Assembly: GCA_964187785.1 (NCBI GenBank)
Contig: OZ076409.1
Span: forward strand, 23,500,001 to 23,564,000
DNA from: Amphiscolops sp. MND2022
Taxonomy: Eukaryota
Direction: 5' to 3'
DNA: 64,000 nt
Below, piece after piece: positions 1,271 to 42,855 of this stretch. The notes below the pieces were generated by a model. That model was given only the letters and a program-made list of their open reading frames with translations, had not been told where the DNA came from and searched no databases. The translations under genes were made by a program, and so were the position numbers. Each line of letters starts with the position of its first letter. The stretch's first letter is position 1.

Positions 1271-2702
1271 GAGTCGTCGACAGAAGTAGCTGTCGTTGGT
1301 TGGACGGAGTTATCCGTCTTTCGTTCTTGTGTAGGATGACGCTCAGGTCGCGGATCATTGGCAGAGTTGGCTCCATTCCAGCAACCGTTTTGTGTGGTTT
1401 GCGGCAAGCGTCGCATTTGAGCGGTCTGCCTGTACTGTTGTTAGCTTGTCCGTTATTTTTCCTGGTTTGCAGCCATTTAGATCGTTTCATTTTCCTGCAT
1501 TCGGCTTTGAAGTGCCCAAATTTAATGCAATAGAAGCAGTATTCTGTTTTGGTGTTCTGCGTAGTGTTTTCACCTTGCTTCAGCTCATTTTTCGTTTGGG
1601 TTGGTTCTATTTTATTTAGGGGTATCAGAGTCACCTCGTCCGGCGCTCCAAGGCCGTTAAGCCGCATTTCTCTTTCTAAGTGGAGCACTATATCGTTATA
1701 GGGTTTGTCCTCAAGGTACGCTCTATTGAGTATTTTCTTGGCGTGATCGGGCATTTTCGCGAAAATTGCCTTCTCAATGAATTGTTGGGCTTCCGATCCA
1801 AAGGCCTCTTTTGCTGTTTTTTGGAGTACATTCAAAATTTTGTGGAGTTTTTGTGTCGAGGGATCGAGTTTATGCGCGTCCCATTCACATCTGGCTTTTG
1901 CCATTGACAAGTAGTGGCCAAATCGACGCTTGAAAATTGTCATTATTTTGTCTAACGAGTCTTTTTTTGAGTCCTCTATATTGCAGAACGCTTGCAGGGC
2001 ATCTCCTCTGAGTAGGAAGTGGAAGTAGTTTATTTTTTGGATTTCCGTAAGATGCGGGTACATTTTTATGTTGTTACGGAAAAGGTCCTCGAAAAGCTCG
2101 AATTTTTTCGTTTTCCCGTCGAAAGTTGGGAGTGATGCCGTTAGAGCTTTTGGCATGGGCAACGCAGTGGTTTCGTTATTATCTGGTGCGAACAGAGTTC
2201 TTGCCATGACCGGGCGTTCTTTTGACGACGGTTGGCTTTGAAACCGTGCTTTTGTTCTTTTGGCTTGGTTGGTGGAGTCGGTTGAAACTCCTGTCACCAT
2301 GTTACGACTACTACACGGGTCGTTATTTTGGGTAGAATTAATTCTGACCGATTTTGAAGGAGTATAGAAGCTCCTTGTTTTGTTTTCTGTTGCTTCTACG
2401 GAGTTATCTCTTGCATTTTCTTTTGTTTCAGGAGGTTTTAGAAGTTTCACCATTTCCTTTTGGGACTCAATGAGGAGATTCGTGATCTCGGACGTGATCT
2501 CCTCCTTTAAAGATGCTCTTAAACTCTCCAAAAAGCTATTACTTATCCCAGGGGATTTTGGTCCCGACGGACCTGCCACGTCGACATCCTGGTTCGGGGA
2601 ATGAGAATTTTCTACAGCTATTGGTGAAACAAAACCCTCACTTACGTTATCATCAGCTTCTCGCTGGGTGTTTTTCCTCTTCTGGCTCCTTGTAGTTGAC
2701 GT
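1261..2702 (-). pseudogene. gag: gag of element A (begins inside the 5' LTR)
   Basis: ORF 1179..2762 has LPTFDGK..FELFEDLF..INYFH..LRGDAL and CFYCIKFGHFKAEC; start is ACG at 2702 where the homologous LTR E has ATG; frameshift near second knuckle. Confidence 0.85.
2288..2299 (-). promoter_or_regulatory. primer binding site TGGTGACAGGAG (tRNA-Leu-like)
   Basis: Immediately follows LTR end ...GTCGTAACA; identical 12-mer follows the 5' LTR of element D (56776-56787). Confidence 0.75.
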
Positions 2703-16800: not shown

Positions 16801-18019
16801 AAGTGAAGCGTACCACTTTATCGAGGGAATTCTTTCGAAAAAAAGACACAGTATCAAAATAGCCGTATGTCTTTCCACAATTATTGGGAAAACACCCAAT
16901 AGTCCTGAACTGGACTGAAAAAAATCAGAGGTTACTCGTAATGCTGAGAAAACGGTTTTGATCAAGGGAAAGTCTCTCAAAAACCGAAAATTTGAGGAAG
17001 AAAAAACCTTTTATTTCGAAAAAGTTTTCCTGATAAATGTCTCTGGTAAATCGCATAATACCGAAACCCCTGAGTCTTCTATGCCCGCAAAAGGTATCGT
17101 TTTGAACCGAAACCGATCGAGGGGAAAACGAATTAAAAGGAACGCGTGGAAAAAACGCCGTAAGAAAAAACTGCAAAATTCGGATATGGGGTGCCGGGTC
17201 AGTGCGAAAAACTAAGTTCAGACAAAAAATGAAAATTTTCCGTCTCATAGTGCCAAAAAACGTAAAAAGGGATTCTTTGGGCTTTCCTGATATCGAACTT
17301 GTTGCAAAATAGCAAAAAATTGACGGAGACGTTAGAAAACGTTCGAAAAAAATCCTCACAGAGCTGAAAAAATTCAAAAAGTGGCACACTTTAGTCTGTG
17401 AATATAAAACAACTATGGATGAGAAAAGAGGAAACTTCCTAATTTACAGCCCTGTAATCGAGGCATGCAATAGCGCAAAAACTACGAGTTCTTTTGATGA
17501 ACGTTTTTTTTTGCTTCGAGAGCATTTTTCATGGTCCTTTCTCTGAAAATATTTATAGCCAAAAATTGTAAATTTTTCAATCCTTTCGGCAATCGAAAGT
17601 AATGTCAAAAGTGATTGAACAAAAATTTTTAGTCGGCGTTTTCGTAAACAGAGCAGATTATGATTATGACATTTTTAAATACCAACAAATTGACAGAATA
17701 GTTCCACCAAAGATTCTTCAATTTTGGCAAAACACTTTTTGGCTAACTACATGTTACATTTAAGCTGCAAAGAAGTCCCCTTCGACAACAACGAAATCCA
17801 TGCTGGATTTTGCGAAAACCAGATGTAAGGAATTCCTGATATAACGAATACCGGATATAACGTTTTCTGGAGATTTCTTCAATGTTACAAAAAGGCTCCA
17901 TTTCGATTTTTAGGATGCTTAAGGTTAAAACAAAATAATTTGAAACCAAATGGCCCCTTTCGGATTTTTGTTTGGTTTTGTGGACTTTTCATTTTGACCG
18001 AACAGCTGTTTTTTCTCAA
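2607..18019. repeat. tandem array of four ~3.85-kb units (partial LTR A plus flanking repeats)
   Basis: tctacagcta(t/a)tggtgaaac recurs at 2611, 6481, 10285, 14159 (periods 3870, 3804, 3874); array ends at 18019; unit 2 lacks 68 bp. Confidence 0.95.
4820..6470. mobile_element. cluster of Helentron-like non-autonomous repeats (HINE/DINE-type), repeated in each array unit
   Basis: T-rich 5' ends TTTTTAGTC(G/T)GCG at ~5139 (-) and ~6076 (+); 3' end GGCATCGACTTGGGCCGTTACCGGCTGGTT (-) at 5139-5169 with subTIR and hairpin; same family at 57600-58010. Confidence 0.55.
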
Positions 18020-21000
18020 TAGTTTATCTTTTAAATCATCTTTCCAGTCATGGCATGATCCTAATACATATGATCATATTCTCCAACTAGAAGAAGTCAC
18101 GTTTTTTTGTCTTTCAGTGGGAGATAATCATTATCTTTTGATATTTGTTTTGAAAATCTCTTCTGGTAACTTCTCTGAATACAGTTGAACTGAACAACCA
18201 ACTCTTCGTCTCACTCAGGCTCAAAAGTCAAAAAGTTAGGCGGCCTCAACCAATCATATGAAACTAAGGTTGCTGTCAACTTTCGATGAGAAGTCACTTG
18301 CCAAAGATAGACTGAAAAATGAAGTGAATCGTGGCAAGCAGAAGAAAGAAGTCAAGCAGATAGAAGCAAACTTTTTAAAGTGAACCACTACGTCATGAGG
18401 TCAGAAGTCAACTTTCGGAGATGAGAAGCGAGTAAGCTTCTCAAAATGCAGATTCAAAACGTTCTTGATGCTTCAGGTAATTTTCTTGCCGTTTTTCCTA
18501 GTCTGAGTAGAGTTGAGTTTCAAGTTGAGCGAGAGTACTCTGAGGTGCAAACATTTTTTTGAGCAATGTTCTCTGGAATATTCCAAAAGCACTTCGCAAA
18601 TTATATCTACGCTTGACGAAAAAACATTAGTGACATCTTTCCTGACAGACGTTCCGACGGCAATTCTGTAATTCGGTTGATTTTCAAAGAGAACGTCGCT
18701 ATGCACTGCATAGCCTGATGTTAGGTAAGAAATTTTCGAAACTTAGTTTTCGCTGCAAAACGCCTGTCATTCGAGTTTTTGTCTGTCAATAAGTTGTTCT
18801 TGCGACCCAGAGAAGCGTCGTTCTATGTCCAACAAAGGAAGCAACATTCTCACAAGATCAAGGAACACCAGGTCAGGTTAACAAGGATGTAGAGTTTTGA
18901 GTGTCGTTGTTAATTTACAAAACTTAGACATATAATGACTAACCGTACTCTACAGTCTATGTTAGAAACGTTGGCAATTTCGAGAACAGACGAGGACTTT
19001 GAGTACTTTGATGAACGTTCGAACGCTCGGGTTCTTTTATTGAAATTGAGGACAGTCTTTCTTGATCAGGAGACTTTGCCTGAGGAAACAGGTTCGAATT
19101 TTGCTAGCGTGCAGAACAAGTTGAAACAAGAACAATTCGAAGTTTGGTGAGAATTGGTGCAATGTCTACATAGAAAGTCATTGAGTTTAGTTAAAACATG
19201 GAAACCTTAGGGCATTCGGACTTAGAAAGTTTTGCAACACTGTTTCAAAAATTGTGAACGTCCTTATAGGAACTCACAAGAAAGAGGGCGCGCTTATTTG
19301 ATGAGAGCTGAAGATATGTTTACCGACGTTGGTAAAAACGTTAGTGATCAAATGCGATGTTCGGTAGTCTTAAAAGGTTTACCGAACAGTTTTGCAAACT
19401 GTTTCAAATTCATGAAGCTAAAACTTCTGCCGATCTAAAACAAGATGTTTTGATTTTCGATAGTGCTGGTTTCCGAGGTCAGACCGACCAAAAACAAGTT
19501 CACATTTCACTAGAGACGTGAAATGTTTCAAGTTTCGTAGAACTGGTCTCCCACAAAGTGAATGCAGAGCAAACGGATCTGCCTTAGTGTGTTACAAACA
19601 AGGTGAAAAAGGCCACAAAGTGATTGAGCGCCCAACAAAGAAACGAATCGAACACAGGGGCTCCTTGTGAGATGGCTCAAAACAAATATTTTTACACGAA
19701 GCCAAATGAGAGTAACTTAACAGCTGAAAAGCAAGGTTGCTCGTTTCAAACTATACGAGTACATTCGACGTGTAAGATCATCGAATTTTTGAAAGACAGT
19801 GGGTGCAAGAGTCGCGTAATGAAAAACGCCGGACTGTTCAGAGACTTGGAGGGTTCAAAAATGGGTAGAATTGAATATGCGAATGGAATTAAGTCCAATA
19901 TTGAAGTTAGATGATCCATCATTATCTCATAAGATCAAACCATGCAACTTGAATAATCGTTTTACGTTCCCCAATACACAAAAACTTAGTTTCGATCAAA
20001 ACACTGAACGAGCAAATGCGAGCGTTCATTTTGATGCGAAAACTCGCTTAGTTCCGGTTGATATAAATTTTCCGTTAAAATGAGAAAATAAAATGTTTTC
20101 TTTACAAAATGATTGTTTGCATCAGCAAAGCAAGGCCGCAACTGCAAGCTTTCAACTCTCAAGACAGACTTCGTCACATTAACAAATTTGATGTTCGAAA
20201 ATTGGCTAAAACTGTAGTCGATATGACGCTAGAAGATGAAGGAAACGAACCTTGAAAAGTGTGTAACACAGAAAAAGCCAAGTGGTTTCCGATAAGCCGT
20301 CAAGTATCAACTAGAGCTAAGAAACTTTCAGACATGGTCCACATAGATACATTGCCAGTAAACACGCCGTGCATAGATAACTTCAAGTACGCTCTAGGAT
20401 TCGTTGATAGCTTCAACAGACTTTATGCTGTTTATCTACTAAGAACAAGAGCCGAAGTCGGAAGGAAGCTCCTGAAATTTATAGCTGAGCTTCGAAAACC
20501 TCGCACTACTGTCACTGAATATGCTAGAGTTCAAAAATGGCTCACCTGAAACGTTTCGATCGTTTGCATACCAATAAGTTTTCCATATAAAACACCTGTG
20601 CTTTCACGCTGCTCATGACACAACACCGTTCGAGAAGGTTTCTGACAAGGCAGCATCAGATGTGCGTCATTTTCGAGTTTTTGGGTGTCGAGCATTCATG
20701 GACTTAAAGCAACCAAAGCGGACAACGTTTGAAAGTAGAGCTTGGAAGGTTTTTTACTCAACGATAGCAATAATTCAAGGCTGTACTTGATCGGAGTTTT
20801 TGATAGCACAGACCTCATCAGGAAAAATAGCTTCAATGTTTAATTTTAGGAGACTGGTTTTCTAGGTAAAACACTCTTCCCAAACAATGAAAAGGAAGTG
20901 AACATTTCTTCGAATTCAACGAAAGGTAAGTAAAACAGAGTTGCAAAACACAGTATCAGCCGCCGTTACACAAAACGTGAAACGCAACGTGAGTGAGTAG

Positions 21001-22127: not shown

Positions 22128-24185
22128 TGTCATAGCCAGCTCCCAGGCTATTATTACTTTGAACGCGATTGCTTCCGTTGAATATACTGTTGTGAACTAA
22201 TTGGAATGTTTTTTGTGACGTCATCATAACAGCTATGCTATCATTACGTTATTATTTGGAATGATTGTGTGACGTCCCCAATTAGAGGTATGGAATGATT
22301 TTTTAAAGCTCAACGTAACATCTCCGTCAACCGCTGTTCAACTAGACCTAATCTTTAATCCGTAAGGAGACCGTTTTGGTTCTTATCAAAAAGGACAACT
22401 CTTAATATACTTGTTTCCCTCTCAAACAAATGTAATTCCATATCGAGTGCTCTTGCTGAATCTCATAATTAAATCGTATTTGGCGCACAGGATGACAATA
22501 TGCCTCTGTAACTAATCGTTGCTTGATGTTTTATGCTCATTTTTTACGGAGTGAAACTTTGTCCGTCGTAAGGCTTCCCTTTGATTTTGCGTTTTCTTTC
22601 TATTGCTGAGTTATATAGTTGTGACCCATAAATTTGCCAATTTTGTCAAACTGAATGTAATTTCCAGTAGACACTGGAACATGTAACATTTAGCATCATT
22701 TGTTTCCTTTCACTCATCTCAGTATTTTCTTCATCCTCGAACAGTTTCATTCCGTTTCAGTTACGTCGTCATTTTTGCCTGAATTTGTGACGCGGGACTA
22801 AAACAATATGAATCAAGTAAATTTTTGTGTGATCAAACCCGATTTTCATGATACCTAAAAAATTTTAGGTGAGGAACAAATGATGCCACGAACGTTTAAT
22901 TATGTTCGTTTTATAAATTGAATCAGATAGTTATTATTGATCTTTGTATCACTGTTTGTTGCTGAAACGACTCTTCTTTAAAAACTCAAAACTTTGAAAC
23001 ATTTTGGTTCTTATCAAAAAGGACAACTCTTGAAATACTTGTTTCCCTCTCAAACAAATGTATTTCCATATCTAGTGCTTCTGCTGAATCTCATGATAAA
23101 ATCGTGATTGTCGCACACAGGATGACAATATGCCTTTGTAACTATTCGTTGCTTGATATTTTATGCTCATTTTTTACGGAGTGAAATTTTGTCGGCCGTA
23201 AGGTTTCCGTTTGATTTTAGCATCATTTGTTCCCTTTCACTCATCTCCGTATTTTCTTCATCCTCGAACAGTTTCATTCCGTTTCAGTTACGTCGTCATT
23301 TTTGCCTGAATTTGTGACGCGGGACTAAAACAATATGAATCAAGTAAATTTTTGTGTGATCAAACCCGATTTTCATGATACCTAAAAAATTTTAGGTGAG
23401 GAACAAATGATGCCACGAAAGTTTAATTATGTTCGTTTTATAAATTGAATCAGATAGTTATTATTGATCTTTGTATCACTGTTTGTTGCTGAAACGACTC
23501 TTCTTTAAAAATTCAAAACTTTGAAACATTTTGGTCCTTATCAAAAAGGACAACTCTTGAAATACTTGTTTCCCTCTCAAACAAATGTATTTCCATATCT
23601 AGTGCTTCTGCTGAATCTCATAATAAAATCGTGATTGTCGCACACAGGATGACTATATGCCTCTGTAACTATTCGTTGCTTGATATTTTATGCTCATTTT
23701 TTACGGAGTGAAATTTTGTCGGCCGTAAGGTTTCCGTTTGATTTTGCGTTTTTTTATTGCTGAGTTATATAGTTGTGATACATGAATTCGCCAATTTTGT
23801 CAAACTGAATGCATTTGTAATTCCTAGTAGACACTGCAACTTGTAACATTTAGCATCATTTGTTCCCTTTCACTCATCTCAGTATTTCCTTCAACCTCGA
23901 ACAATTTCTTACCGTTTTAGTTACGTCATCATTTTTGCTTGAATTTGTGACGCGGGACTGAAACAGTATGATTTAACTGAGTTTTTGTGTGATCAAACCC
24001 AATTTTTATGATACCTAAAATCTTTAGGTGAGGAACAAATGATGTCAGGAAAGTTTAATTATGTTGGTTTTATACAGTAAATCAGATAGTCATTAGTGAT
24101 CTTTGTATCACTGTTTGTTGCTAAAACCATTCTTGAAAAATTTAAAACTTTGAAACATTTTGGTTCTTTTCAAAAAGGACAACTC
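22128..24185 (+). mobile_element. LTR-derived fragment nested in the Copia RNase H region
   Basis: Starts TGTCATAGCCAGCTCCCAGG, resembling LTR A/E start TGTCACAACCCGCTCCCGG; interrupts Copia coding remnants. Confidence 0.5.
22374..24185. repeat. tandem repeat, three ~628-bp units
   Basis: ttttggt(t/c)ctt(a/t)tcaaaaaggacaactc at 22374, 23002, 23529, 24158; middle unit has ~100-bp deletion. Confidence 0.9.
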
Positions 24186-25677: not shown

Positions 25678-26070
25678 TTACGACACATGAGACCCATTCT
25701 CAGTTTTACTGAATACAGGGCTGACAACAACTAGCTTAGGAACAAGTTTTTGGGCCAACAATTGCCAGTTGTGGTCAATGTCTTCGTAGGAGCATGTTTT
25801 CACTTGAAAATCCTCTAAATTCAGCAGTCCTTTCTGTTCCATTTCCCATGCATGTTGGATGGCCCTGTTAAATTCTTGGCCTGTATCATAGATGTAACTC
25901 GTGATCACACGTATTTCTTTCTCCCACATGCTGTGAGGGACGAGGGAAACAGCCTCATTTTCAGCACAGCATCCAAACAAAACAACTGTTCCACCTTTGG
26001 CTGTTTTTTGGACTGCTTCTGCTAAACATGGCGCCTGACCAGTACAGTCTATCACCAAATCGTATGTTTC
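25678..26070 (-). CDS. Zn-dependent MDR dehydrogenase, exon 4 (last)
   Basis: ETYDLVIDCTGQAPCL..KGGTVVLFG..KEIRVITSY; AG acceptor at 26072-26071; stop TAA. Confidence 0.85.
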   Translation of the reverse strand, partial: ETYDLVIDCTGQAPCLAEAVQKTAKGGTVVLFGCCAENEAVSLVPHSMWEKEIRVITSYIYDTGQEFNRAIQHAWEMEQKGLLNLEDFQVKTCSYEDIDHNWQLLAQKLVPKLVVVSPVFSKTENGSHVS

Positions 26071-26077
26071 CTTCAAT

Positions 26078-26485
26078 TAGGGATGCCCAAACTTTTTTAT
26101 TCAACTGTTCTGTTTTTTGAATCTGGTATAACTTTTTAAAAAGGACAAACAAAGTGCTTTAATCGAAACAAATTTTAGTTTGAATTCTTACATAGACAGT
26201 CGAAACCTTTGAGATTACGTTTGAATTCTTACATAGACAGTCGAAACCTTGGAGATTACGTTTGCATTCTTACATAGACAGTCGAAACCTTGGAGATTCC
26301 TGGAATACTTCAATAGACAGTCGTTAAGTTAGGTTTGAGACCTTTTTAATGTGCTGTCAGGTCTGGTTCAAGATATGTTTTTACCTAGGCCAGAGGTTCC
26401 GATCCAAAATCTTGTTCCGGGTTCCTTTTCTAGCAGATCTATTAGGTGGCACCCGACCAACTTTTTCACTATTAGGGCATCCCTA
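26078..26485. mobile_element. hAT-like MITE occupying intron 3
   Basis: Perfect 11-bp TIRs TAGGGATGCCC (26078-26088) / GGGCATCCCTA (26475-26485), Ac-like terminus. Confidence 0.7.
26178..26323. repeat. 41-bp minisatellite, ~3.5 copies
   Basis: gtttgaattcttacatagacagtcgaaaccttggagattac-type unit at 26178, 26219, 26260 plus degenerate partial copy. Confidence 0.9.
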
Positions 26486-26486
26486 C

Positions 26487-26774
26487 TGCGGAAATAGTTA
26501 ATTCAGAAACGCTAATTGACACTGCGCCCATTTTCTCAGCAACTGTCATTCGATCAATAGAATGGTCGGTGCACGTGATACGAGCGTAGTCTTCACTCTG
26601 TAGAACCCGGATCCACAAGAGACCAATCATGCCGCAGCCAAAAATCAACACTTTCGGCTCAATTTCTCTTCTTATTGGAGGCTGTATTCTCCAATATCCG
26701 TGTAAAACAGTAGCCAGTGGCTCAATCAAAATCGCATTGAGTGATTGAAATTGATTCGGTATTGGTCTCACGTA
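26487..26774 (-). CDS. Zn-dependent MDR dehydrogenase, exon 3 (Rossmann fold)
   Basis: YVRPIP..AILIEPLATVLHG..KVLIFGCGMIGLLW..ITCTDHS; acceptor ttttag, donor GTAGGG; phase 0. Confidence 0.9.
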
Positions 26775-26792
26775 CTAAAACGAACTAATTCA

Positions 26793-27053
26793 TTGGTTGC
26801 ACATCGAAAATCTCCTAGGTTAAAAACCCCTAAAGTAAGGAATCGTGTTTCGCTACGTTCATACGTACCAACAGTGCCCTAAATGCAGGAACAAAGCACT
26901 CCTGGTCCGGTCCATCGGACGGCTTTGATGAAGGTCGACCTAGAGGGGCACAAAGCGCCTCGGAAGGACGAAGGCCGAGGTATATAACCAATCTTTGGGG
27001 TTTAGATTTTCGTCTTGGAGATTTTAATTTAGGAGATTTTGACCTGATACCAA
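26793..27053. mobile_element. MITE with imperfect TIRs
   Basis: TTGGTTGCACATCGAAAATCTCCTA versus TAGGAGATTTTGACCTGATACCAA; flanked by 7-bp direct repeat TAATTCA. Confidence 0.6.
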
Positions 27054-27499
27054 TAATTCAATTCATTATTGAACGAAAATTTGATGCGGTCCATGCACTA
27101 TGGTACCAAAAAGCTGAAAAATTTGATTCGCTTGCGAAAACCTTTTAAATATCACTCAGAATTGCAACGGAGTTTCCAGTCGGCGCTTTTTGTGACACAA
27201 AAGTGTCCGACTTTTACAGAGACCTTTTTTCTCCAGACCACAGACATCGCACTGAAAAGCTTGTATGTTACAGCATTCTGAAAATTGTTCTAAACTTCAA
27301 CATGAGTTTACAATATGTGCTTTTCTGTCTTTCGACGCTAATTTGATTTTCAGGCACCATTTCTGGAAAATAAAATATTTTCATACTTACGTGCTACGAA
27401 CCTACACTTTACGTCTTTTCAGTTGGCGCTTCCATAGAAAGAGCAGACTATTGAGTGACATTTCTTTTTTTAAGACCGACGAAGTGACAGATTTTATAA

Positions 27500-27804
27500 A
27501 TTTCTATAAATTTTGTTCAACTTGCAGACGTACTAGAACCTCGCAAACATGCCAAGGGTCCCCCTTCGACTACCTCGGTGTTTTTAACTTTGATTTTTTA
27601 GCAATTTTTGACGATCACTAACTTCACAATTAATTTCACATAATTTGCGTCCAATGTAAAGCTTCAGGGTGAAGTTTTCAGTACTATAAGACTTTTTTTG
27701 GATTTTCGAAAATCCTTTATTCAACAAAAGATACTAAAACCATGTCCCCGGGTACACTTTTGTGCCTTGACCGTGGCGCTGATTTGGGCCGTTCCAGGCT
27801 TGTT
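27500..27804 (+). mobile_element. Helentron-like non-autonomous repeat, 3' end (start approximate)
   Basis: Ends GTGGCGCTGATTTGGGCCGTTCCAGGCTTGTT (subTIR, hairpin, TT). Confidence 0.5.
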
Positions 27805-28176
27805 TATATTACGTGGAATACAATTGTTTTTTTTTAGTATAATATTGGGTTAGGGTATATTTGCAAAAAAACGCCGGGTGGACAATGAATTGTAAAAGGT
27901 TTGGCGTTTTGGCGCCGTGGGACTTCTTTTTGGAAATTTATAAATTTCATCAGTTACCCCTTTGAGTTTTCGCTGTCGAAGGTGTTTAAACGGTGTTCTA
28001 AAAGTGTTTAACGAGACTTAAGGGTCTATTTTTGGGTTTTTTAGCACAAAGGTTTTTCGAACGAAGAATATTAAAATTAAATTTCTCCAAAAATTTGGGA
28101 TTTTCTGATATTTTCAGTACAGCAAAAAGTTTTCGAGTCTGAAGGTACCCTTTCGTGTATTTTTTGCCACCGTATG

Positions 28177-28450
28177 TGTTATAAGGTTCTTTATTCTCAA
28201 TAACTGTTATTCTGTTTAGATAACAAAGAAGAGAGCTTAAGTAAGATTCTATTCTCGATCAAGACCATGTGGCAAAGTGAATTACCATTTCTTTTCTGGT
28301 CTATAGCTTTGCTGGTACTATTGGCCAACCATAGTAATTACAAAGACAACTGTATAAATGAGCATACTATGATTGACAGTTTTGTTGACAGTTAAATTGT
28401 TTTTTAATTTAAAGTTTCTTTTAGATTCTTTTTGTGACAGCCCTGCCACA
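28177..28450 (-). repeat. 3' LTR of element B
   Basis: Near-identical to 33200-33473; adjacent PPT at 28451-28461. Confidence 0.95.
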
Positions 28451-29302
28451 CTCCTCCTTCTGTAGTTCTTGGCCATCTCTGCTTTACATGACATGTGTAA
28501 ACTCAAAAATTGGGGCTGTAGTAGTTCGTTATGCTTGTTTATCGTAGGCTGTCTTCGCTAGAAGAGCTGTTTATGATTTCGGGTTTTTCTGCTTTGTCTA
28601 GGCCACAAATCATTACGGCGTCTCCGTAGTATTGGGATGCTTTTCGATTTCGTTGTGGGCGTTTCTCTCAAGTTGATGTGCCGGGTTCATCTGCCGTGTC
28701 TGTTTCTTGTTCACTGAATTGTTTTTCGTGTTCTGTGGGTTCTTCTGGTTCGGATTTTGTCCAGTTTACCGTGGCTTTTATTGCACTTGTTGATGCTTTA
28801 CTTTTTTGTCTTCTCTCGTCTTCCTCCTCGTCTTCTGATTCGAAGAATATTTCTCTCCAGTTTTCGAGGCGTTTAAATTCCGTCGGAATTCTTCTGCTGA
28901 GTTTCTTCTTGGGCTTTATTGGAGCAGTTGTATTTGTTGGTCTTGTTTGAGGCTTTGGTTGTAGCGTTTTGGTTGGTTGATTAATGGTGGCGTTCGCTGA
29001 TTGGTCATTTGTGTTTTGTTTGCTCAGTTGTGGTGTAGCCATTTTATGTGAAGTTGCCACTTCACGTTTGCTGAACAGCGTTGGCAGTGACTTGCCGCGT
29101 TCTTTCATCGTGATTGTATGTGGGGTTTCTGCGGTGATTTGGCCCTACTTTTTCTTATATGCTGTTTCCAGCTTTGAACCTCTGGTTCTTTCCCGTACCA
29201 GAATTTCAGAGTCTTGGGCGGCTGGGAAATCGCTCATCGTCAGCTCGAAGTTGTTGTCGTTGCCTAAAACATTGTAGTTATGTTGTATTGGTTTTGTAGT
29301 TA

Positions 29303-29993
29303 TTATATCTTTGATAGTAGTAAATTTTCGCTTGTGTGTAGTTCCGCTGGTGATATTTTATTTTCTTTGGGGGCGGTTCGTAATGCATATAACAATTCTG
29401 ACAAACGTGTATTATCTTTATCTAATACAATTCTTTGGTTTGCTCTTAGTCTTTCATTTATTGTGCCGATTAATCTTTCCACTTTACCATTTCCTCTATG
29501 GTCGTGTATTGGGCAGATTACATGTTTAATGAAATATTTTTGGCAGAATTCTTGAAATTTTTTACTTTTAAAAACGGTTCCTGGGTCTGTACGGATTTGG
29601 CGTGGGAATCCGTTATCTGCTATAGGGTCCTGCAAAATCAATAGCTATTTCTTCATTTATTGTTTCTGGTGTAGGGATTTTTCCAAATTGTTTTTGTGAT
29701 AATATAGGTTTTACTGATTTACCTGCGTTTTGGCATTCGGAGCATGATTGTGTAAGTAGAGTAATGTCACGATGAATACGTGGCCACCAAATATCTGTTA
29801 TTTGTCGAAGCATTTGGTCACGGCCTGGGTGTCCCCGGTGTAATGAATTTTTAATGGAACTTTGTAAGATTTTAGGAATAACCAATCGATCATCTAGGTA
29901 TAATAAGTCGTTTTCGTCTAATGATAGCGAAGAAAAACGTTCGCGCCATGGGCTGTCGAGTGATTTGATTTTTGATTTGGTGGGATTTTTCAC
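29303..29993 (-). pseudogene. integrase of element B (frameshifted, with internal deletion)
   Basis: LHRGHPG..WWP..CSEC, IAIDFAGP, RTDPG, NGKVER. Confidence 0.9.
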
Positions 29994-30457
29994 TGAATTA
30001 ATGATTTTCTGTAGGGTTTCGTCATCTTTATAATTGGCAATTAGTAGATTTTCACCAATTTTGTTCGCAATAGGGATTTATGATTCAAATTTACTGGAAA
30101 TTGGATTACCTTTGTGTGTATCCGTTGAATGTAATTGGCCCATTTTATGGTGATCGTTTGTTTGCTGTTTATCGCGTGTTTTGAATGACTCGTTTATGTT
30201 TGCACATTTACTGCGTGCGTCGTCGCGTCTGAGCTTGATCCATTTGCGGCCTCTGATTGGTCCGTTGATTTCTTCAGCTAAAATGCTATTTACATTATTT
30301 AGATGGTTCACTGTGAACCAGTTGTTCCATAATTCGTCTGCTTTCACGCTTTCGCCTTCTATTGAGATGGATGTCGTGATAGATAGTCTGCAATGCCAAT
30401 TGTTCGGCCTGGAGCATGAAAGATTTTAAAATCTAATGGAAGTAAACGATCAACCCA

Positions 30458-33200
30458 TCAAGTGAATCTACTCGAGTATGTTTTTTTACACTTGTTGCTT
30501 TTTAAAACTGTAGCGAGTGCTTTGTGGTCGGATACAACTTGGAATTTTATTCCGTATAGGTAGTTCTTAAAGTGTTGGACTGCCCAAACAACTGCCAATA
30601 ACTCAAGTTCATTAATTGAGTCTTTTTCTTCTATTGGTGTAAGGAAACGTGAAGCGAAGTGAATTGGTCTCCAACCAATTTCTTCTTGTTGTTGTAATAC
30701 AGCACCTAAACCGGCTTTACTGGTATCACAAATAATTCGTAATTTTCTATTTTGCTTGAAGTGGCCTACTTCAGTGACTCTTTTGACTTGTTTATTTATT
30801 TCTTCAAAAGCCTTTTCGTGGGTTTCGTTCCAGTTCCATTGTTTATCTTGTTTTAGCAATGGGCGTAGTTTAAAGCATAGTTGTGCTAAATTTGGTATGA
30901 ATCTATTTAGTTGATTCACTGCGCCCAAGTATAATCTGGGTTCTTTTAAATTCTTCGGTTTCAATTTATCAGTTATCGCTTGAATTTTTGTATTGATTGG
31001 TCGTATTCCTGTTTGTGTTAGGTGATACCTTAACCATTCAACTTCATTTTGTGCGAACTTGCATTTTTCCCATTTTAATCGTATGTTTGCTTCATCAAGT
31101 TTTTCTAATACTTGTTTTACTTTTGCGTAATGATCTGTTTGGCTACCTTTTGTCACTTTTAGTATGTCATCTAAGAAAACATACGTATTCGCAATGTTTG
31201 AGAGTTTTTTATCCATAAAATTTTGGAACTCTGTTGCCATCACTGTGAGTCCATAAAATCCAGTGATAAAGCGATATGTGCCTGTTGCTTTACCGCCTAT
31301 TATTTGGAAATTACAGTGACGTGCAGTTTCTTCGTCCAATGGTACTTGACCATAGGCATAGCGCATGTCTAGTGAAGTGTACCACGCTTGTCCGCTTGTT
31401 GAATTATCTAGTTGTTCTGCTACCATATCTACGAGATGTTCTAAATTCGGCATTTGGTATTTGTCTTTGATCAACTCGTTATTTAACGCACGTGCATCGA
31501 ATGCGATTTTTACGCTTTTGTCCCGTTTCACTGTGATTACAACTGGTTGGATAAATTGTTTATCCGTCACATCGGTTATTCGTTCGATGTGTCCTTCATT
31601 TAATAGTCTTTCAACTTCTTCTTGTACCGCGTCTTGTAATTGAATAGGGACTCGTCTACTTTTTTGTTGGGTTATTTTAGCTTCTGGTTTAAACTCAATT
31701 TTCACTGTATGGTCGCGAATTTGTCCTTGTCTAGTGAATAAGGAGGGAAATTGGTTTTGTAATTTAATCTTTTCGTTGTGATTATCGTTATCACTCAAAC
31801 TTTTTGGATTATTTTGTTTACTTGGTTCTATTGTTTTATTTGGTTGTTTAGCACTTTGTTTAATTGTGTAAATAGCGTTGTTACCTTCACTTTTTGTTGG
31901 AGATACGAATTTGTAGTTGAACGCGTTCAGCCAATCACGTCCAATGAGTGATTTTGCGCCTTTGTCTGCAATCAATATTCGAGCTTTATTTAGTTTGCTA
32001 TCACCAACTTCCAAATGACAGAATATGTATCCCAGTAATTGTACTTTTCGTTTATTGAAGTCCACGTATTCTTCATCTTTTGGTAGCTCCCTGATGAATA
32101 GTGTTTTGCGCTTCTTTATTTGTTTTATTTCATCAATCGCGAATATCGTCACTGGTGATCCGGAATCAACCATTGTTTGAAATGGGTTCCCATTGATCTT
32201 TCCTTTCATGGTAAATTGTCCACTTGTATCACCTTCAATTGTGAGTACTACCTTCTCATCGTCTGCAATTGATTCCTCACTGCTTTCGCTCCATTCATCA
32301 ATACGCTGAATATGTTGAGGGGGTTTTGCTACTTTGCGACTTTTCGCAAATGTTCCAGCGCCTTTAGTTTGACAACATCGGGCAAAATGTCCTTTCTTGC
32401 CACATTTCATACAAGTGACACCCAAGGCTTTACACTCCTTAAGACGTTGTGGTGTGAATATTCCTTCGCATCTGAAACACGTTTTGGTTGGTCCCCAGCG
32501 TTTATTGTTTTGGTTAATGTTATTTACTTCCGTTGTTTCAGTTTTTATATTTGGCTTATCCAGCATACCAAACGATTGTTGTCTCAGCGTGCCCTCTTCA
32601 TTAGCAATTGCAAATTGAATTGTTTCTGCTGCTGTTGCTTTTGGCTCAGTGCACAATTTTTGTTGTACATCTTGGTTTATCATGTTCACTGTGAAGACGT
32701 CTTTTACTAAACTGTCTGTTATCGCACCAAAATTGCATTTTGCTGCTTATCCATTTAATTCGTTCCAGAAGTTTTTCAATGATTCTCCTTCTTTCTGTTT
32801 TCGGGACAAGAATTTGAAGCGTCAAGGGTTTCATTTTTGGGTTTCTCAAAGCAATCCTTGGAGTTTTTTAACAAATCTGGGAGTGACACAGTAGCAATAT
32901 TGATAGTGGGGAACTTGTCAGCATTTGATTTGCGTCCTGCAGATCCCAAAGCGAGGTGAAGTACGCTTATAGCTTTCTTTGTTGCTGGTACTTCGTCGAG
33001 GTCACCCATTAAACTTTAATCTTTTTTCCCGTTTTTGTTAGTTCGGCAATGGACATGTTGTTTTTGCCCATTAATGCCACTTCAAATAAATCTCGCCATT
33101 TTTCCCATTTTAATGTAGGGTTTTTGGAGGCATCTTGGCAATAAGTTGGAAGTCCTGCAATCGCCTGAGGTCCTCCAGAAGGTTCAGGTCGCAGCGCCAT
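30458..33200 (-). pseudogene. pol: gag-pol of element B (gag broken; 743-aa ORF with knuckles, PR, RT, RNase H)
   Basis: CMKCGKKGHFARCC, MVDSGS, LDMRYAYGQ, FLDDIL, ICDTSKAGLGAVL, ELELLAVVWA; start ATG formed at the LTR/PBS junction (MALRPEP). Confidence 0.9.
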
Positions 33201-33473
33201 GTTATAAGGTTCTTTATTCTCAATAACGGTTATTCTGTTTAGATAACAAAGAAGAGAGTTTAAGCAAGATTTTATTCTCGATCAAGACCATGTGGCAAAG
33301 TGAATTACCATTTCTTTTCTGGTCTATAGTTTTGCTGGTACTATTGGCCAACAATAGGAATTACAAAGACAACTGTATAAATGAGCATACTATGATTGAC
33401 AGTTTTTTTGACAGTCAAATTGTTTTTTAATTTAAAGTTTCTTTTAGATTCTTTTTGTGACAGCCCAGCCACA
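33200..33473 (-). repeat. 5' LTR of element B
   Basis: Followed on minus strand by PBS TGGCG; TSD GTATG at 33474-33478. Confidence 0.95.
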
Positions 33474-33511
33474 GTATGATATTTGAAAGGTTATGAATAG
33501 CTATCCCGTGA

Positions 33512-35625
33512 ATATTTGCATTTTTAAACCGTGAGCGAGGCGCCGACTTGGGCTCTACGAATGATGTTTAGAGTCGTAACATGCAGGATCGAAAAATGCG
33601 AATAAATAATTTAGCATCGAAGTACTCAGAAATGAATCAAACAAGAAAAGAAATGTTAAATTGCAAGATGATGATAATGGAAAATTTTTGCCGACGCATA
33701 AATGCCTCTAATGAAATTCCAGTGCTGCGACTTAATTTCTCGTTGTTTTTTCTGAGGTACACAAGTTATCCCAGTGTTTGACAACGTGAAAATTTTGTCA
33801 AAATCTTTGTGGCATGAAGTAGACAATTCATGGCCAACTCACAAACAAATTCATGTACCTGCCAAAATCTGATGTCATGTAGTACTCAACATACATTACA
33901 TTGTTGATCTGAGATATAGTTGAATAACACAGCATAGAACTTTGTCTTCAGTTGCTAATTTTATCCTCAGTACGCATTTAATTTAACCTTATTATCCACC
34001 TTTTCTCTCAGTTTACTTTATGGCGCAGTCAGCAATTTGAACAGAACAACATGAAAACCACACCGACCCAAACTCAACGGAAGGTGGACCGAAATCATCG
34101 GAACAGTAAACCAGGACTAACAATAATCAAACAACATCCGAATGGAAGAAAATAATCAAATACAAAATCCCGATTTTATCGGAAAGAGAAACGGATCTCA
34201 CAAAGATCAACCCAAAAATGTGGTGGGAACAGATATCGGAATATATACACCTGACATACAGCCGAAATCTTGACGAAATCATAGATCAAGGAACCGAGTA
34301 CATGGACCGACACACTGTATACCACTTAAAGGGCGACGTCATTTGGGCGCTCGGCCCAAAAACCAAACACGAAATTATGAGAGGTCAATGGGGCCGAGAA
34401 TTAAAAGACGTCAATCTACCGGACTTATTGACATTATTCAAGAAAACATTTCTTCCGGTAAGAAACGTATTTCATAGCAGGGCACAATTCTTCAACATGA
34501 AGCAGGATGGCAACGAAACGTTGGACGAATATTGAAAAAAATTTGGTGGACATTGAGAGAACATGCGATATTTGCATTTTTAAACCGTGAGCGAGGCGCC
34601 GACTTGGGCTCTACGAATGATGTTTAGAGTCGTAACATGCAGGATCGAAAAATGCGAATAAATAATTTAGCATCGAAGTACTCAGAAATGAATCAAACAA
34701 GAAAAGAAATGATAAATTGCAAGATGATGATAATGGAAAATTTTTGCCGACGCATAAATGCCTCTAATGAAATTCCAGTGCTGCGACTTAATTTCTCGTT
34801 GTTTTTTCTGAGGTACACAAGTTATCCCAGTGTTTGACAACGTGAAAATTTTGTCAAAATCTTTGTGGCATGAAGTAGACAATTCATGGCCAACTCACAA
34901 ACAAATTCATGTACCTGCCAAAATCTGATGTCATGTAGTACTCAACATACATTACATTGTTGATCTGAGATATAGTTGAATAACACAGCATAGAACTTTG
35001 TCTTCAGTTGCTAATTTTATCCTCAGTACGCATTTAATTTAACCTTATTATCCACCTTTTCTCTCAGTTTACTTTATGGCGCAGTCAGCAATTTGAACAG
35101 AACAACATGAAAACCACACCGACCCAAACTCAACGGAAGGTGGACAGAAATCATCGGAACAGTAAACCAGGACTAACAATAATCAAACAACATCCGAATG
35201 GAAGAAAATAATCAAATACAAAATCCCGATTTTATCGGAAAGAGAAACGGATCTCACAAAGATCAACCCAAAAATGTGGTGGGAACAGATATCGGAATAT
35301 ATACACCTGACATACAGCCGAAATCTTGACGAAATCATAGATCAAGGAACCGAGTACATGGACCGACACACTGTATACCACTTAAAGGGCGACGTCATTT
35401 GGGCGCTCGGCCCAAAAACCAAACACGAAATTATGAGAGGTCAATGGGGCCGAGAATTAAAAGACGTCAATCTACCGGACTTATTGACATTATTCAAGAA
35501 AACATTTCTTCCGGTAAGAAACGTATTTCATAGCAGGGCACAATTCTTCAACATGAAGCAGGATGGCAACGAAACGTTGGACGAATATTGAAAAAAATTT
35601 GGTGGACATTGAGAGAACATGCGAT
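33512..35625. repeat. 1056-bp tandem duplication (flank, LTR and gag start of element C)
   Basis: 33512-34569 repeated at 34568-35625, near-identical, 2-nt AT microhomology at junction. Confidence 0.95.
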
Positions 35626-38600
35626 TTCAACAGTATCACAGCGGAAGAAATTATCACCTACCAATTTTCGGCCACCATCAAAGACAAAAAGGCCCGAAAC
35701 AAGTTCACAAAAGGTCCGCTGAAAATCCAATTGGTACTGGAAAATATCGATCTCGACAACTACTATCGGAAATACGGAGAAAAAACCGAGAAATAAAAAA
35801 CCCAAAAACGACTCAACAAACAGTTCATCAGGAGACGAACAGATCAAATACAACAACCAAACACGAAAACGAAAACAAACTTGTAACGAGAAGAGAAAAT
35901 TATCAAACCGGAACTGCCGCTTTTGCGGAAAACCGACCTGGTCATTGGAAAACATATGCACGGAGATCACAATGCAACATTTGCAAAAAGATGGGACATT
36001 TTGCCAACGTGTGCAAATCCAAGACCGTCAACCGGATAAGTGAAGCACCGTCATCGGGTAGCAACACCGAATCATGGCCAGAAATTGACCATCTTCAGTC
36101 CGTCAACGGCATCAATCGAATTGATTTCTACAAAGCAATCCTATTGGTCCAGGGACAACCAATAGAATTCATCCTCTATACCGGCTCACCAGTGACAATT
36201 ATACCGCCGATAAATATTTCGACAAAGAAAACAACGAAAAATTTCGTTGATGTAAACAAAAACCCAATCAAATTCAAAGGCGAAGCAATGGTGGAAGTGA
36301 AAACGAAGGAAAGCAAGGAGATATTATCAATTCTCAATACAGAATACAAAAACACTCAACCATTATTGGGCCTAGATTGGATAGATAAATTGGAAATTGG
36401 CCTACAGGGCAGCAAGAAAACAAATGTCATACGTCACATGGAAGAAGACGAAAGACGAGAAAGAAACACCCACGAATACGAAGACTTATTCAAAAACAAC
36501 CATACTATCAAACATCTCACCATTGATATCCAGTTGAAGAAAGACATCAAACCTATTCAACAAAAAGGGCGACCGGTCTCCATACACTTCCCAAAGATCG
36601 TGCGAGAAAAAATAGAAAAACTAATCGAAAAGAGACATCACGAAAAAGCTGGCAAAACCACCGAAAATTGCTTTATGTCACCCGCAGTCATTACCATAAA
36701 GAAAGACAAATCGGTCAAAATAGCGCTGGATTCGAGAAAACTAAACAAGGCATGTGTAAAAAGAAAAGCAGCAACGCCGAACAAGGAGGAATTGATCAGT
36801 AAAAAGTCTGCCGAAATTATCGAAAATGACGGTGACATTTGGATGTCGACGATCAATTTGGATTACGCCTATGGTCAAGCGAAATAACCCAAAGAAGCAG
36901 CTAAACATTGCGTATTTTCGATTGTCGGAGGAGATATTACTGGACATTACTGTTTCAAGAAAAACTTTTACGGGCTGTCGGATACCCCCACGGTATTCCA
37001 GGAACACATAGATACCGTACTGGAATTTGAAACACCAGTTTGGTTATCATTTGCGTAATTAATGGCAGCATTGAAGACCATGAATGGGAAGTGCGAGAAG
37101 TTGTCACAAAATTGCAAAACGCCAGATATCGAGCTAGCGAAAGGAAAATTGAACTATTGAAATTGGAACTGACATAGCTGGGCTACTATATTAACCAAGA
37201 AGGCGTGAAACCAAACAAATATGAAACAGAAGCAATCACCAAATTGGAAGCACCGAAGAACGTAAAAGAATTAAAATCATTCCTGGTCTCCATTCAACAT
37301 CTCTCGAAGTTGTTAACAATCTATCAAAAAAGACAGATAAAATGCGGAATTTCCTGAGGAAAGACGTCAAATGGGAATGGATTCCGGAGATAGACGAAGA
37401 CTTTGAAGGATTCAAAAAAGAGATCAAGGAAGCCCCGTTTCTGGCCCACTTTGACCCGAAGAGAGACAATTACATCACAACTGACGCACGTTATACGGGA
37501 CTGGGCGCAACACTGTGACAAAAGGAAGGTGAAGTATTCAGACCTGTAGCCTTTGCAAGTAGATTTTTTAAACTGATTGCAAAAAAATACGCAATAGATG
37601 AACTAGAATTGTTAGGGGCAATATAGGGGCTAGAGTACTTCAGGTATTTTGTTTACGGAAAAAGGGTAAGTTTGTTAACAGACCACCAGGGCTTCAACCA
37701 ATATTGAAAAAGAAGCCAGCACACAAACAATACAGCGGTAGAATAACACGTTGGTTGGATAGATTGAGCCATTTTGATGTTAATGTACAGTATACGACCG
37801 GTGAAAACATTCCGTTAAAGGAGTACTTGGGCCGACAACTGATCGTACCGACCGAGATTACCGATTTGGAAAACAAAGCGGACGGACAAAAGGAAGAGTT
37901 CGTCGTTAATCAAATGTACGGCCTCTTCGAATTCAACCAAACGCGAGGAAGCATAAAAGGATTCACCGAACAAGCGACCGTGAGAGAACTTTCCGACCAA
38001 TCACAAGGCGACAAAAACATACGTGAACAAAATCAAAAGAATCATTGCTCAAAACTTCATCGTTGTGGAACGGTCCTAATTCAACCGCTTTAAATAACGT
38101 TTTACCGTACTCAATCAACAAAATGGACAAAGTCAATGGCATCGACATGGTATTCATATACCAGAAGCGGGGCCATTCCCCAGAAACAAAATGCCTCTGG
38201 GTTGAGAGAAATCACATCCTGAAGCCAGAGAAAACGAGATTTGTTGGAAAAGGCAAGGACAATGAGAGAATACAAGAGTATCGATCTTCGCAGATCGGCC
38301 GCAAACGGATCGTTGAATTGAACATTAAAATCTAAAACCGCTTCTTCCATTACTGCGAGACTCTTGGAACAACTCCCCTACAAAAAGTTCAACAAAATAA
38401 CAACGAGTCTTGGACAAACAGCAATCATTCTGATGGGGAAAACCAGATAAGCCGAATTAAACAGGACAATTGCCCCAGAACTACGTTGACGAAATTCTGC
38501 AAACACGAAACGGTAAATCTAATACGGTTGAAACAGACAGCAAAAATCAACACTCACAATCCCGAACAAAACGAGAAGACGTCCGAGGTCATAAAAAACC

Positions 38601-41600
38601 GAGAAGGACTTTTCATTGGACTTACCATTACTGGTAGATGAGACCGTCCGGGATATAAAAAATCTTAAATGCAATTGCAGCTAGTGGAAACGAGCAGCAG
38701 GAGAGCATTTCCGACCTTACCGCCCCCACCGATTGCACCTCTCCACAAGATTCCGATTATTATTTTAAAACAATAAAATTGTCATCCCCGAGAACATGAG
38801 GACAACTGTTACTGCCATGCTGCACCAAGGCCACACGTCCGCAGCCAAAATGGATCAGCTCGCTGAAGCTTTCTGATGGCTGGGAATACATAGAAATCCA
38901 GGAAAAAACAGAAACATGCCCGAGTTGCAGAGCTGCATTTAAGAACATTACAACACAAATTCCGTCAACGAAGAAAAATGAATTGGAAATATTAACCGAA
39001 CCGAATCAAGAAACTCAATTGAACTTTGCCGGTCCAATCAAATCGAAGCCGCGCGGCGATGTATTAATTTTAGTAGCTTATGACCGTTTTAGTAAATGGC
39101 CTACCGTACACATTTGTAAAAACGTGGACACACGGATCGTCCTAAATTTTTTGACGGAGTATTTCGCGGATAACGGAACACCACGGTGTATTCGAACCGA
39201 CAACAGTAGCTGTTTTGAAAGTAACGAATTAAAAAAATTCTGCAACGGCTAAAATATCAAGCGCATAAGATGTACTCAGAATTTACGACTCGGTACAGGC
39301 TTAGTTGATCGAACAATACGGACAATTAAATCATTAACCAGAGCAAACATGGCAGACGGACTAATAGAAGACAGCGTCCAATTAGCAATCAAAACAATTA
39401 GACAGACGCTGCATAGCAGATTAAACTTGACACCTTTCCAAATCCACCTAGGCAGGAAACCACGCACCGCACTTACAAATTCAATCGGTAAACCAGATTG
39501 TCTACTATCTAATTGGAAAAGAACATTAACCAATTACAATTTAGCCCAGCCGACGGAATTGCAGGTCTTCGCAATCAACGACTCGGATAGGGAGATGGCC
39601 GAATATATGGTACTCAACGATACCAGGAAGAGGGGCTGTTCGGTAAGCCGGAATGTTAAAAAATATCAATTTTTTGGAAAGAAAAATAAACCTAATTTAA
39701 TGAAATGTGGATTCAAAACTGACAAAATTTAACTGTGATACAAGAAACTGACCACACCACCACCACTGAAGGAAAAAATCATACATAAAAGGCTAGCCTC
39801 TAAAGCCCTGAAGTTTCAGACCTCCAGAAAACCTGACGAACAGAGGAAGACAATCAGCAGATGCCGCAGATGTGGGAAAGTCAGTAGCGGTGAGTACTGT
39901 GAGACTCACAGACGCCTCAGAGTCGAAGGAGACTTAAACAATATTCATGCGCACAACGACGCTGGTCCAAGTCACACAATGCCAACAATGCCATCGGAAA
40001 AGCCCACTTACAGCTGCGTGGTCATGTATGACTCGCCCAGCCGTGACTCGGATTCTATAGTGCCAAATGTGGACAAAGATATCTCCGACGCGGACCATAA
40101 CTCCGAGGAGACCGGTCAGAGGGCCGAAATCGAACGGCAAATCGAGACGCTACGGGCACACACGCCGACAATGACATCGCCAATTGGGTGCAGCACCGCG
40201 ATAGCCCCCACTACATTTGCAACTTGATACATCAGGCACTCCGATAAGAAGCCAAGAGACAAACACCGTCATAGCGGAAGAAGGGAATAAAGAATGAATG
40301 ACAGGTAAACTAAGGTCAAAACAAGTAAACGAAGAAAGAAGGAACAAAGTCAGATTTGAATTAGAGCCACGTAGATCAGAAAGGATAAAAAAGCAAAAAG
40401 GGTGGGAAAATTCGGTGGTGGTTGAAGGTTTTCAATAAATTTAGTCGTTTAGGAAACACCTTCAGCCCCCCTACTCTGAGAAGCTATTCAACGATGCCAT
40501 TCCCTCGTCTGAAGAAGGATATGCCAAACTTCGAATGGTTCCACTAAAACCTGCGGAGGGGGAAATGTGGCATGAAGTAGACAATTCACGGCCAACTCAC
40601 AAACAAATTAATGTACATGTCAAAATCCGATGTCATGTAACACGTAACATACAATACATTGTTGATCTGAGATATAATGGAATACCACAGCATAGAACTT
40701 TGTCTTCAGTTGCTAATCTTATCCTCAGTACGCTTTTAATTTAACCTTATTATCCACCTTTTCTCTCAGTTTACTTTATGGCGCAGTCAGCAATTTGAAC
40801 AGAACAACATGAAAACCACACCGACCCAAACTCAACGGAAGGTGGACCGAAATCATCGGAACAGTCAACCAGGACTAACAATAATCAAACAACATCCGAA
40901 TGGACGAAAATAATCAAATACAAAATCCCGATTTTATCGGAAAGAGAAACGGATCTCACAAAGATCAACCCAAAAATGTGGTGGGAACAGATATCGGAAT
41001 ATATACACCTGACATACAGCCGAAATCTTGACGAAATCATAGATCAAGGAACCGAGTACATGGACCCACACACTGTATACCACTTGAAGGGCGACGTCAT
41101 TTGGGCGCTCGGCCCAAAAGCCAAACACGAAATTATGAGAGGTCAATGGGGGCCGAGAGTTAAAAGACGTCAATCTACCGGACTTATTGACATTATTCAA
41201 GAAAACATTTCTTCCGGTAAGAAACGTATTTCATAGCAGGGCACAATTCTTCAACATGAAGCAGGATGACACCGAAACGTTGGACGAATATTGAAAAAAA
41301 TTTGGTGGACATTGAGAGAACATGCGATTTCAACAGTATCACAGCGGAAGAAATTATCACCTACCAATTTCGGCTACCATCAAAGACAATACGGCCCGAA
41401 ACAAGTTCACAAAAGGCCCGCTGAAAATCCAATTGGTACTGGAAAATATCGATCTCGACAACTACTATCGGAAATACGGGGAAAAACCGAGAAATAAAAA
41501 ACCCAGAAACGACTCAACAAACAGTTCATCAGGAGACGAACAGATCAAATACAACAACCAAACACGAAAACGAAAACCAACTTGTAACGAGAAGAAAAAA

Positions 41601-41625
41601 TTATCAAACCGGAACTGCCGCTTTT
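33808..41625 (+). mobile_element. Ty3/gypsy (Mag-like) element C, decayed, with tandem LTR-internal structure
   Basis: 213-bp LTRs at 33808-34020, 34864-35076, 40566-40778, each followed by PBS TGGCGCAGTCAGCA; PPT GCGGAGGGGGAAA before 40566; CNICKKMGHFANVC, RT LDSRKLN/LDYAYGQ, integrase FAGP..DRFSKW..RTDN. Confidence 0.93.
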
Positions 41626-41670
41626 TTAGTAGGGCACTGTAAAGAGTTTAGAAGTGTATTTATAACTAAC

Positions 41671-41880
41671 TTCAGGAAGGAAGACTGCAAACTCAGACAT
41701 GGTTCCATCGTGGTGGATTCCGTAGGTGCTGTGTTTCTCACAAAAGTTATCGTTGATGCCTTTGTATTTGATGCAGTCAGCGCAAACTTTGCAAGAAAGA
41801 TTCGGTTGAATCACAACTCGTGTTCCTACTTCCAACCTTTGCCCAACATTCTTCCCAATCTCATGAACTTCACCTAAGCC
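41671..41880 (-). CDS. Zn-dependent MDR dehydrogenase, exon 2 (structural zinc lobe)
   Basis: GLGEVHEIG..VGTRVVIQPNLSCKVCADC..NFC..YGIHHDGTMSEFAV; acceptor tttttcag, donor GTTAGT; phase 0. Confidence 0.92.
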
Positions 41881-42675: not shown

Positions 42676-42855
42676 CTCATGACCATTTACAGCCCCGTCT
42701 TTGCCGGTTATCTTGCCATTTATGACCGAGATGTCCGTTCCACAGACACCACTGGCTATCATCTTGACCAAAACTTCATCGTCTCCACAGAGTGGAATTG
42801 CTCTTCGTTCTAGTCTCAGTCTTTTTTTGCTTCTGTCGATGACTAATGCTTGCAT
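42676..42855 (-). CDS. Zn-dependent MDR (sorbitol/threonine dehydrogenase-like) dehydrogenase, exon 1
   Basis: MQALVID..DDEVLVKMIASGVCGTDISV..NGHE; donor GTAATT; four exons join in frame to ~356 aa. Confidence 0.92.

Follow-up and report, generated by a model that had tools for sequence, protein, structure and literature searches.

The question raised by the medium-chain zinc dehydrogenase gene in this stretch of Amphiscolops sp. MND2022 DNA (the window, 64,000 nucleotides in all) is whether its third intron was created by the transposable element lying inside it. Read on the minus strand, the intron consists of a G, an element of 408 nt and ATTGAAG, 416 nt together and thus 8 nt more than the element, whose ends match each other inversely at 11/11 positions before the match breaks at position 12; this composition, which the first-pass annotation had described, was reproduced when the coordinates were read again (Table 1). 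The element is short and, having stop codons in every frame, without coding capacity, as is typical of a MITE. Our analysis indicates that the 416-nt gap probably arose when a hAT-type element entered an exon at a target with AGG at its end, and that this element would be removed together with one duplication length.

Table 1. Positions in the window of the dehydrogenase exons and introns and of the parts of the element in intron 3.
Feature	Positions	Strand	Remarks
Exon 1, medium-chain zinc dehydrogenase	42676..42855	-	60 codons, ATG to GHE; ADH_N, E 8e-6; family search
Exon 2	41671..41880	-	70 codons, structural-zinc cysteines; ADH_N, E 1e-8
Intron 2	26775..41670	-	14,896 nt, contains decayed LTR retrotransposons
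Exon 3	26487..26774	-	96 codons, nucleotide-binding GxGxxG; 3' end ...TCC GCA
Intron 3	26071..26486	-	416 nt, phase 0, GT-AG; predicted splicing
Element inside intron 3	26078..26485	-	408 nt
5' terminal inverted repeat TAGGGATGCCC	26475..26485	-	first T completes GT donor
In-frame TAA	26472..26474	-	immediately after 5' repeat
Fragment (~110 nt) of a different, old dispersed repeat	26331..26442	-	inside element
41-bp tandem repeat, 3.6 copies	26178..26323	.	146 nt, within element
3' terminal inverted repeat GGGCATCCCTA	26078..26088	-	
Upstream 8-mer TTCCGCAG, expected site of first duplication copy	26486..26493	-	last G = intron base 1
Downstream 8-mer ATTGAAGG, expected second duplication copy	26070..26077	-	AG at positions 6-7 = acceptor; final G opens exon 4
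Exon 4	25678..26070	-	130 codons plus stop; ADH_zinc_N, E 3e-10

The front part of the gene was located 15 kb upstream by a family search, and the four exons join into an uninterrupted reading frame of 356 codons. As expected of a dehydrogenase, this frame encodes both an ADH_N and an ADH_zinc_N domain; the zinc ligands are in place, and all introns are GT-AG and in phase 0. In an unspliced message the frame would stop four codons into intron 3. Among 20 in-frame GT/AG pairs around the site, 26486/26071 alone keeps the linker of the protein, the next best pair costing 8 residues, while one GC donor near the site costs 1 residue; the earlier proposal that splicing restores the frame is therefore upheld for this predicted pair. 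An apparent exon at 26869-27009 was rejected as part of intron 2. At least two LTR retrotransposons, both decayed, lie in this 14.9-kb intron. One has 274-bp LTRs that are 96% alike (28177-28450 and 33200-33473). Near the 3' end of the intron are 24-nt inverted arms of 83% complementarity (26807-26830 and 27017-27040). Elsewhere in the window there are a tandem array of ~3.8-kb units with 98-99% identity (2608-18029) and a three-copy array with units of 527-630 bp (22374-24185).

The boundaries of the element sit 1 nt and 7 nt from the predicted splice sites of intron 3, as is characteristic of introners. The intron begins with GTAGGG and ends with AATTGAAG, and the donor GT is indeed composed of the flanking G and the first T of the inverted repeat (26486/26485), as had been proposed. 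Both splice sites are non-optimal, the donor being GTAGGG and the acceptor AAG instead of YAG. The supposed lack of a pyrimidine tract holds insofar as only 12 of 28 acceptor bases are pyrimidines, but as a distinguishing feature it loses weight, because the contrast with the other two introns of the gene, which have only 15/28, is small. As a whole the intron folds no better than shuffled sequences (z -0.87), its ends do pair in the model, and Rfam gave no match. The two flanking 8-mers, TTCCGCAG and ATTGAAGG, agree at 2/8 positions, in keeping with the initial caveat that they no longer match. Scored singly, they lie at the 33rd and 18th percentile of real targets and so within their range, and the upstream 8-mer fits the target profile nTnnnnAn of the hAT elements described below.

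Pairs of the pattern TAGGGRTG..CAYCCCTA with a spacing of 385-415 occur 73 times in the genome, compared to 5 for a reversed control pattern. Ends of the TAGGG type also adjoin matches to the hAT dimerisation domain PF05699, and the exact 11-mer of the intron 3 element, or its C-start form, terminates three older duplication-flanked MITEs (L027, L070/L185 and L189), the interiors of which are unrelated to that of the intron 3 element. The terminus of Ac, TAGGGATG, is similar. Since the ends are enriched as pairs, adjoin this domain and are shared with duplication-flanked MITEs, they are hAT ends as judged by sequence, and their original assignment was borne out. Ends of this kind, together with 8-bp duplications, are shared by several hAT MITE families of the genome. 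We examined 50 of the 73 pairs, that is 49 elements besides the one in intron 3, and their duplications, from which the above profile was read, matched at 8/8 positions in 33, at 7/8 in 7 and at 6 or fewer in 9. None of these 49 elements interrupts a long frame.

The element in intron 3 stands apart from these relatives. No 8-bp target-site duplication is recognisable at its flanks, where 2/8 positions agree, compared to 7-8/8 in 40 of the 49 other elements, and searches of the genome with the DNA and with end or internal motifs, which miss copies below ~80% identity, returned the locus itself alone. Examination of all 46 TAGGGATGCCC sites in the genome yielded two other MITEs, again with unrelated interiors, and the exact motif of the 41-bp tandem repeat occurs nowhere else in the genome. 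The fragment of ~110 nt in the interior is ~70% identical to copies of a dispersed repeat at 9 loci, which was ruled out as a sibling element because it represents another repeat family without TAGGG ends. The composite nature of the interior, a diverged repeat fragment next to a 41-bp array, points to an old insertion.

The geometry suggests a simple route from insertion to intron. The hAT elements of this genome start with TAGGG and duplicate 8 bp. When such an element hits the sequence NNNNNAGG in an exon, the last G of the first copy and the first T of the element would form a GT donor, while the AG of the second copy would serve as acceptor. The cut would then comprise 1 nt, the element and 7 nt, so that the ordinary spliceosome would take out the element plus one duplication length and the frame would survive. 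In this form the rule is predictive, requiring only that the element starts with T and that the 8-bp target ends with AGG. The insertion in intron 3 would be an old one, whose interior later gained, or already contained, a second repeat together with a tandem array. Intron-making is probably an occasional by-product of ordinary hAT MITEs rather than the activity of a specialised intron-spreading family.

The first-pass annotation had proposed a search for other introns of this build, and one clean case was found in a UDP-glucuronosyltransferase gene with a UDPGT domain (G000:C8:757594-757772; L267 minus strand, L313). There, an element of 163 nt with an inverted match of 13/14 is flanked on both sides by ATTGCAGG, a perfect 8-bp duplication. 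G, element and 7 nt add up to 171 nt and contain an in-frame stop, so that the transferase gene needs the predicted cut. The gene is complete and has a dN/dS of 0.13 against an intact paralogue over 369 codons. At 16 of 19 paralogous loci the alignment crosses the site and shows no intron, the remaining 3 falling short of it, and two of the intron-free paralogues, ~80% identical, are gapless across the site. The element belongs, in shortened form, to a family for which there are 46 DNA matches; both ends were found at 7 of 29 sibling loci, every one with a duplication of 7-8/8. The second case thus has the predicted geometry plus the features missing from the intron 3 element, namely a duplication, a parent family and intron-free paralogues, and the layout agrees with that of intron 3, even though the two elements are unrelated in sequence and belong to different hAT families. 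Close to its start, the transferase gene contains a further intron, which is absent from the paralogues L315 and L317. L314 (G000:C9:48400137), one of two near-identical transferase paralogues, has an in-frame stop.

The search was a partial screen that covered 462 loci and looked for AGG at a distance of five bases after an element end, or for AGG directly before an element start. The hits examined in the successive sets were 64/125 plus 3, 30/82, 30/119 plus one found by coordinate matching, 70/74, 10/10 and 7/7; most hits repeating one 8-mer, which are parts of other repeats, were left out, and the design excludes elements with other ends or those that lost their duplication and lack AGG. 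Within this scope, eight other elements combined the AGG layout with a duplication of 7-8/8, and around seven of the eight no recognisable exon was found. The resulting exonic excess in the partial screen (1/8 compared to 0/48) was not significant (P 0.14). The elements prefer targets with A at position 7, which a target ending in AGG does not have (1 of 80 target readings), and this preference, together with the fact that most landings are outside exons, explains the rarity of such introns.

Whether intron 3 is young or ancient as an intron was assessed from homologues. Homologues were found by a full HMMER search and by an alignment search, but not by two word-based protein searches with single exons. 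The nearest proteins, 41-51% identical, are named by their sources as those of the acoels Symsagittifera roscoffensis and Convolutriloba macropyga, which makes it likely that the host is an acoel too. Five records, P0066, P0067, P0074, P0164 and P0075, all gene calls on long genomic contigs, read through the intron 3 site in one frame, so the proposed comparison with orthologues found no intron predicted there in relatives, which are only 45-51% identical and whose intron state was read from protein fragments. P0067, P0074 and P0075 start with intron-derived residues that are not present in spliced proteins, indicating that these calls were taken from unspliced DNA, and P0069 and P0075 break at the positions of introns 1 and 2 of this gene. 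Since the read-through records fall on both branches around the dehydrogenase in the tree, a lineage-specific gain is the simpler reading, and intron 3 is likely such a gain. P0001 is 98% identical to exon 4 and begins at its fifth codon, just past the intron, which suggests that the break also exists in another haplotype. The linker has 15 residues as spliced here and in P0072 and P0163, compared to 17 in P0065 and P0068, and the two lengths are tied on the tree as the ancestral state. In a distant paralogue the linker is also interrupted by an intron, which an alignment from the N side places five codons further upstream.

This last intron bears on the strongest of the alternatives, according to which an older lineage-specific intron was present first, the MITE inserted at the border of this intron, and all but 1 + 7 nt of the old sequence was deleted, so that the element would occupy an intron that it had not made. 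Such a history would account directly for the missing duplication, MITEs within existing introns are common here (L058 is one), and alternative transposition of hAT elements is described as producing flanking deletions (10.1101/2020.01.07.897926). However, it needs two events that each ended exactly at a splice junction and jointly left 8 nt, a number that the insertion model alone predicts. Moreover, the gene calls of the five relatives show no intron at the site, and the second case argues that the direct route works. We therefore regard a pre-existing intron as improbable.

Under the preferred origin by insertion into an exon, the loss of the duplication has to be explained. Substitution alone, with the 11 inverted pairs left intact, has a probability of at most 2e-4; if splicing constrains all but five of the pairs, the value becomes 5e-3. 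A match as poor as 2/8 was found in just one of the 49 other elements. Given the low probability of plain decay, either selection or some further event has to be invoked. We tentatively favor, as the simplest description, that both copies were originally identical and that the six inner bases of the first were then lost in frame, by which A and G would remain and two codons would be gone, an idea for which only two bases serve as a test. Small deletions of 1-2 nt inside one copy account for 3 of the 9 other poorly matched elements (L126, L132 and L146). Many substitutions in the first copy represent a possible, somewhat less favored course, whereas a flanking deletion made by the transposase seems rather unlikely. 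The attempt to prove the six-base deletion by the length of homologues was dropped, as linkers of 15 and 17 residues both occur and the tree is tied.

A further alternative assumes that the insertion is not cleanly spliced and that the gene is a disrupted allele or a young pseudogene, in which the frame-restoring pair is a coincidence. With a weak donor, an AAG acceptor and single-stop pseudogenes occurring in the genome (L314), this reading has some appeal, but it is very improbable, since the repeat fragment in the interior is ~30% diverged and the insertion looks old, yet 356 codons are open with their zinc ligands. Furthermore, P0001 suggests that the break is shared by a second haplotype, and an AAG acceptor was also read in the paralogous dehydrogenase L109. 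The intron of this paralogue (minus strand 1660-2131, G000:C12) is 472 nt long and has identical 10 bases at both junctions; it has no inverted ends, and its interior is a common repeat. Finally, it is hardly credible that an ordinary intron has the inverted repeat by chance. Although the 11-mer by itself is barely enriched genome-wide (46 compared to 36) and the element has no close copy, intron 3 is the one span with an end-to-end inverted repeat of more than 7 nt out of the 408 in the window that run from GT to AG over 416 nt, the 11-mer terminates real duplication-flanked MITEs, and both arms are placed where the 8-bp model expects them. Intron 3 is thus likely a real, transposon-made intron with a decayed signature.

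The mechanism itself has already been described. Introners of the hAT type that co-opt both splice sites and have an 8-bp duplication are reported for Panicum virgatum (fam14) and Styela clava (fam1) by Gozashti et al. (2025; PMC12130899), and the class in which both sites are recruited appears in an earlier study (Gozashti et al., 2022; PMC9860276), where an introner family is defined as at least four introns that are similar end to end. Judged against this definition, the element in intron 3 is present in one copy and the second case is unrelated to it, so that intron 3 works like an introner without belonging to an introner family. Membership in such a family is accordingly not supported, the element having neither a close copy nor a recognisable duplication and the second case deriving from a different hAT family. 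The likeness to the Panicum and Styela introners lies in the non-autonomous hAT element, the terminal inverted repeats, the 8-bp duplication and the splice sites from the insertion site, with Styela, a tunicate, being likewise an aquatic animal host. In contrast to those families of at least four similar introns, the introns described here are, by sequence comparison, two unrelated singletons from two hAT families with canonical GT-AG borders, and intron 3 has lost its duplication.

Similar features are found in the MITE-like introners of Micromonas and Aureococcus and the MITE-derived introns of Fritillaria, which are described as short inverted-repeat DNA transposons removed at the RNA level with a splice site in the duplicated target (PMC11282704). 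Those elements account for hundreds or thousands of introns and bring their own splice site or non-canonical ends, whereas here there is no spread and the element contributes the T of the GT only. Likewise, maize Ds1, a hAT element of the Ac/Ds group, is spliced out of exons via sites near its termini, although several donors and acceptors inside the element and changed messages are described for it (PMC5432752), in contrast to the dehydrogenase, where a single pair at or beyond the border of the element is predicted to allow in-frame removal. A literature search found no report of introners in acoels, and four acoel names were absent from 12 of the 14 supplementary files of PMC12130899, which perhaps did not screen acoels; the host group is therefore new as far as literature searches go.

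Although the surprise is limited by the mechanism being known, the origin of a new intron is seldom observed directly in animals, and published screens found introners in few animal groups and required at least four similar introns. One young case with empty-site paralogues and one old case provide a before-and-after pair of a fading transposon signature, and it is likely that the known hAT route to new introns operates at a low rate in this animal. If the rule holds widely, some ordinary-looking lineage-specific introns would derive from common MITEs that are missed by family-based searches. It is conceivable, if doubtful, that TAGGG-ended hAT families jointly constitute a slow multi-family intron generator, each of them able to make a clean GT-AG intron on hitting NNNNNAGG in an exon, whose singletons are invisible to family screens and whose inverted ends are kept in old cases by selection, since their pairing aids weak sites, while the duplication decays.

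Several other repeats were encountered in the genome. The motif CATCCCTARTYSAAG, tried as a signature of intron ends, was enriched (42 compared to 4) but was rejected, since most of its occurrences lie at the end of another element, which is 555 bp long and has no duplication. A dispersed element of ~555 bp (L043, L046, L051, L059, L063 and others) has the ends ATCCCT..AGGGAT, which resemble the hAT motif in inverted orientation, and shows no target duplication. At L258 (G000:C6:45922546), a 147-nt stretch with inverted ends of 11/12 has AGG on both sides (5/8) and no recognisable exon. The old dispersed repeat whose fragment sits in intron 3 has grown elsewhere (L481-L509, G000:C5:19219669-19227448) into ~8 kb of a 33-bp tandem repeat. 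MITEs with TAGGGATGTACCGG ends and a remnant hAT dimerisation domain inside were found at L058, L205 and L208, of which L058 lies in an intron and has a duplication of 8/8.
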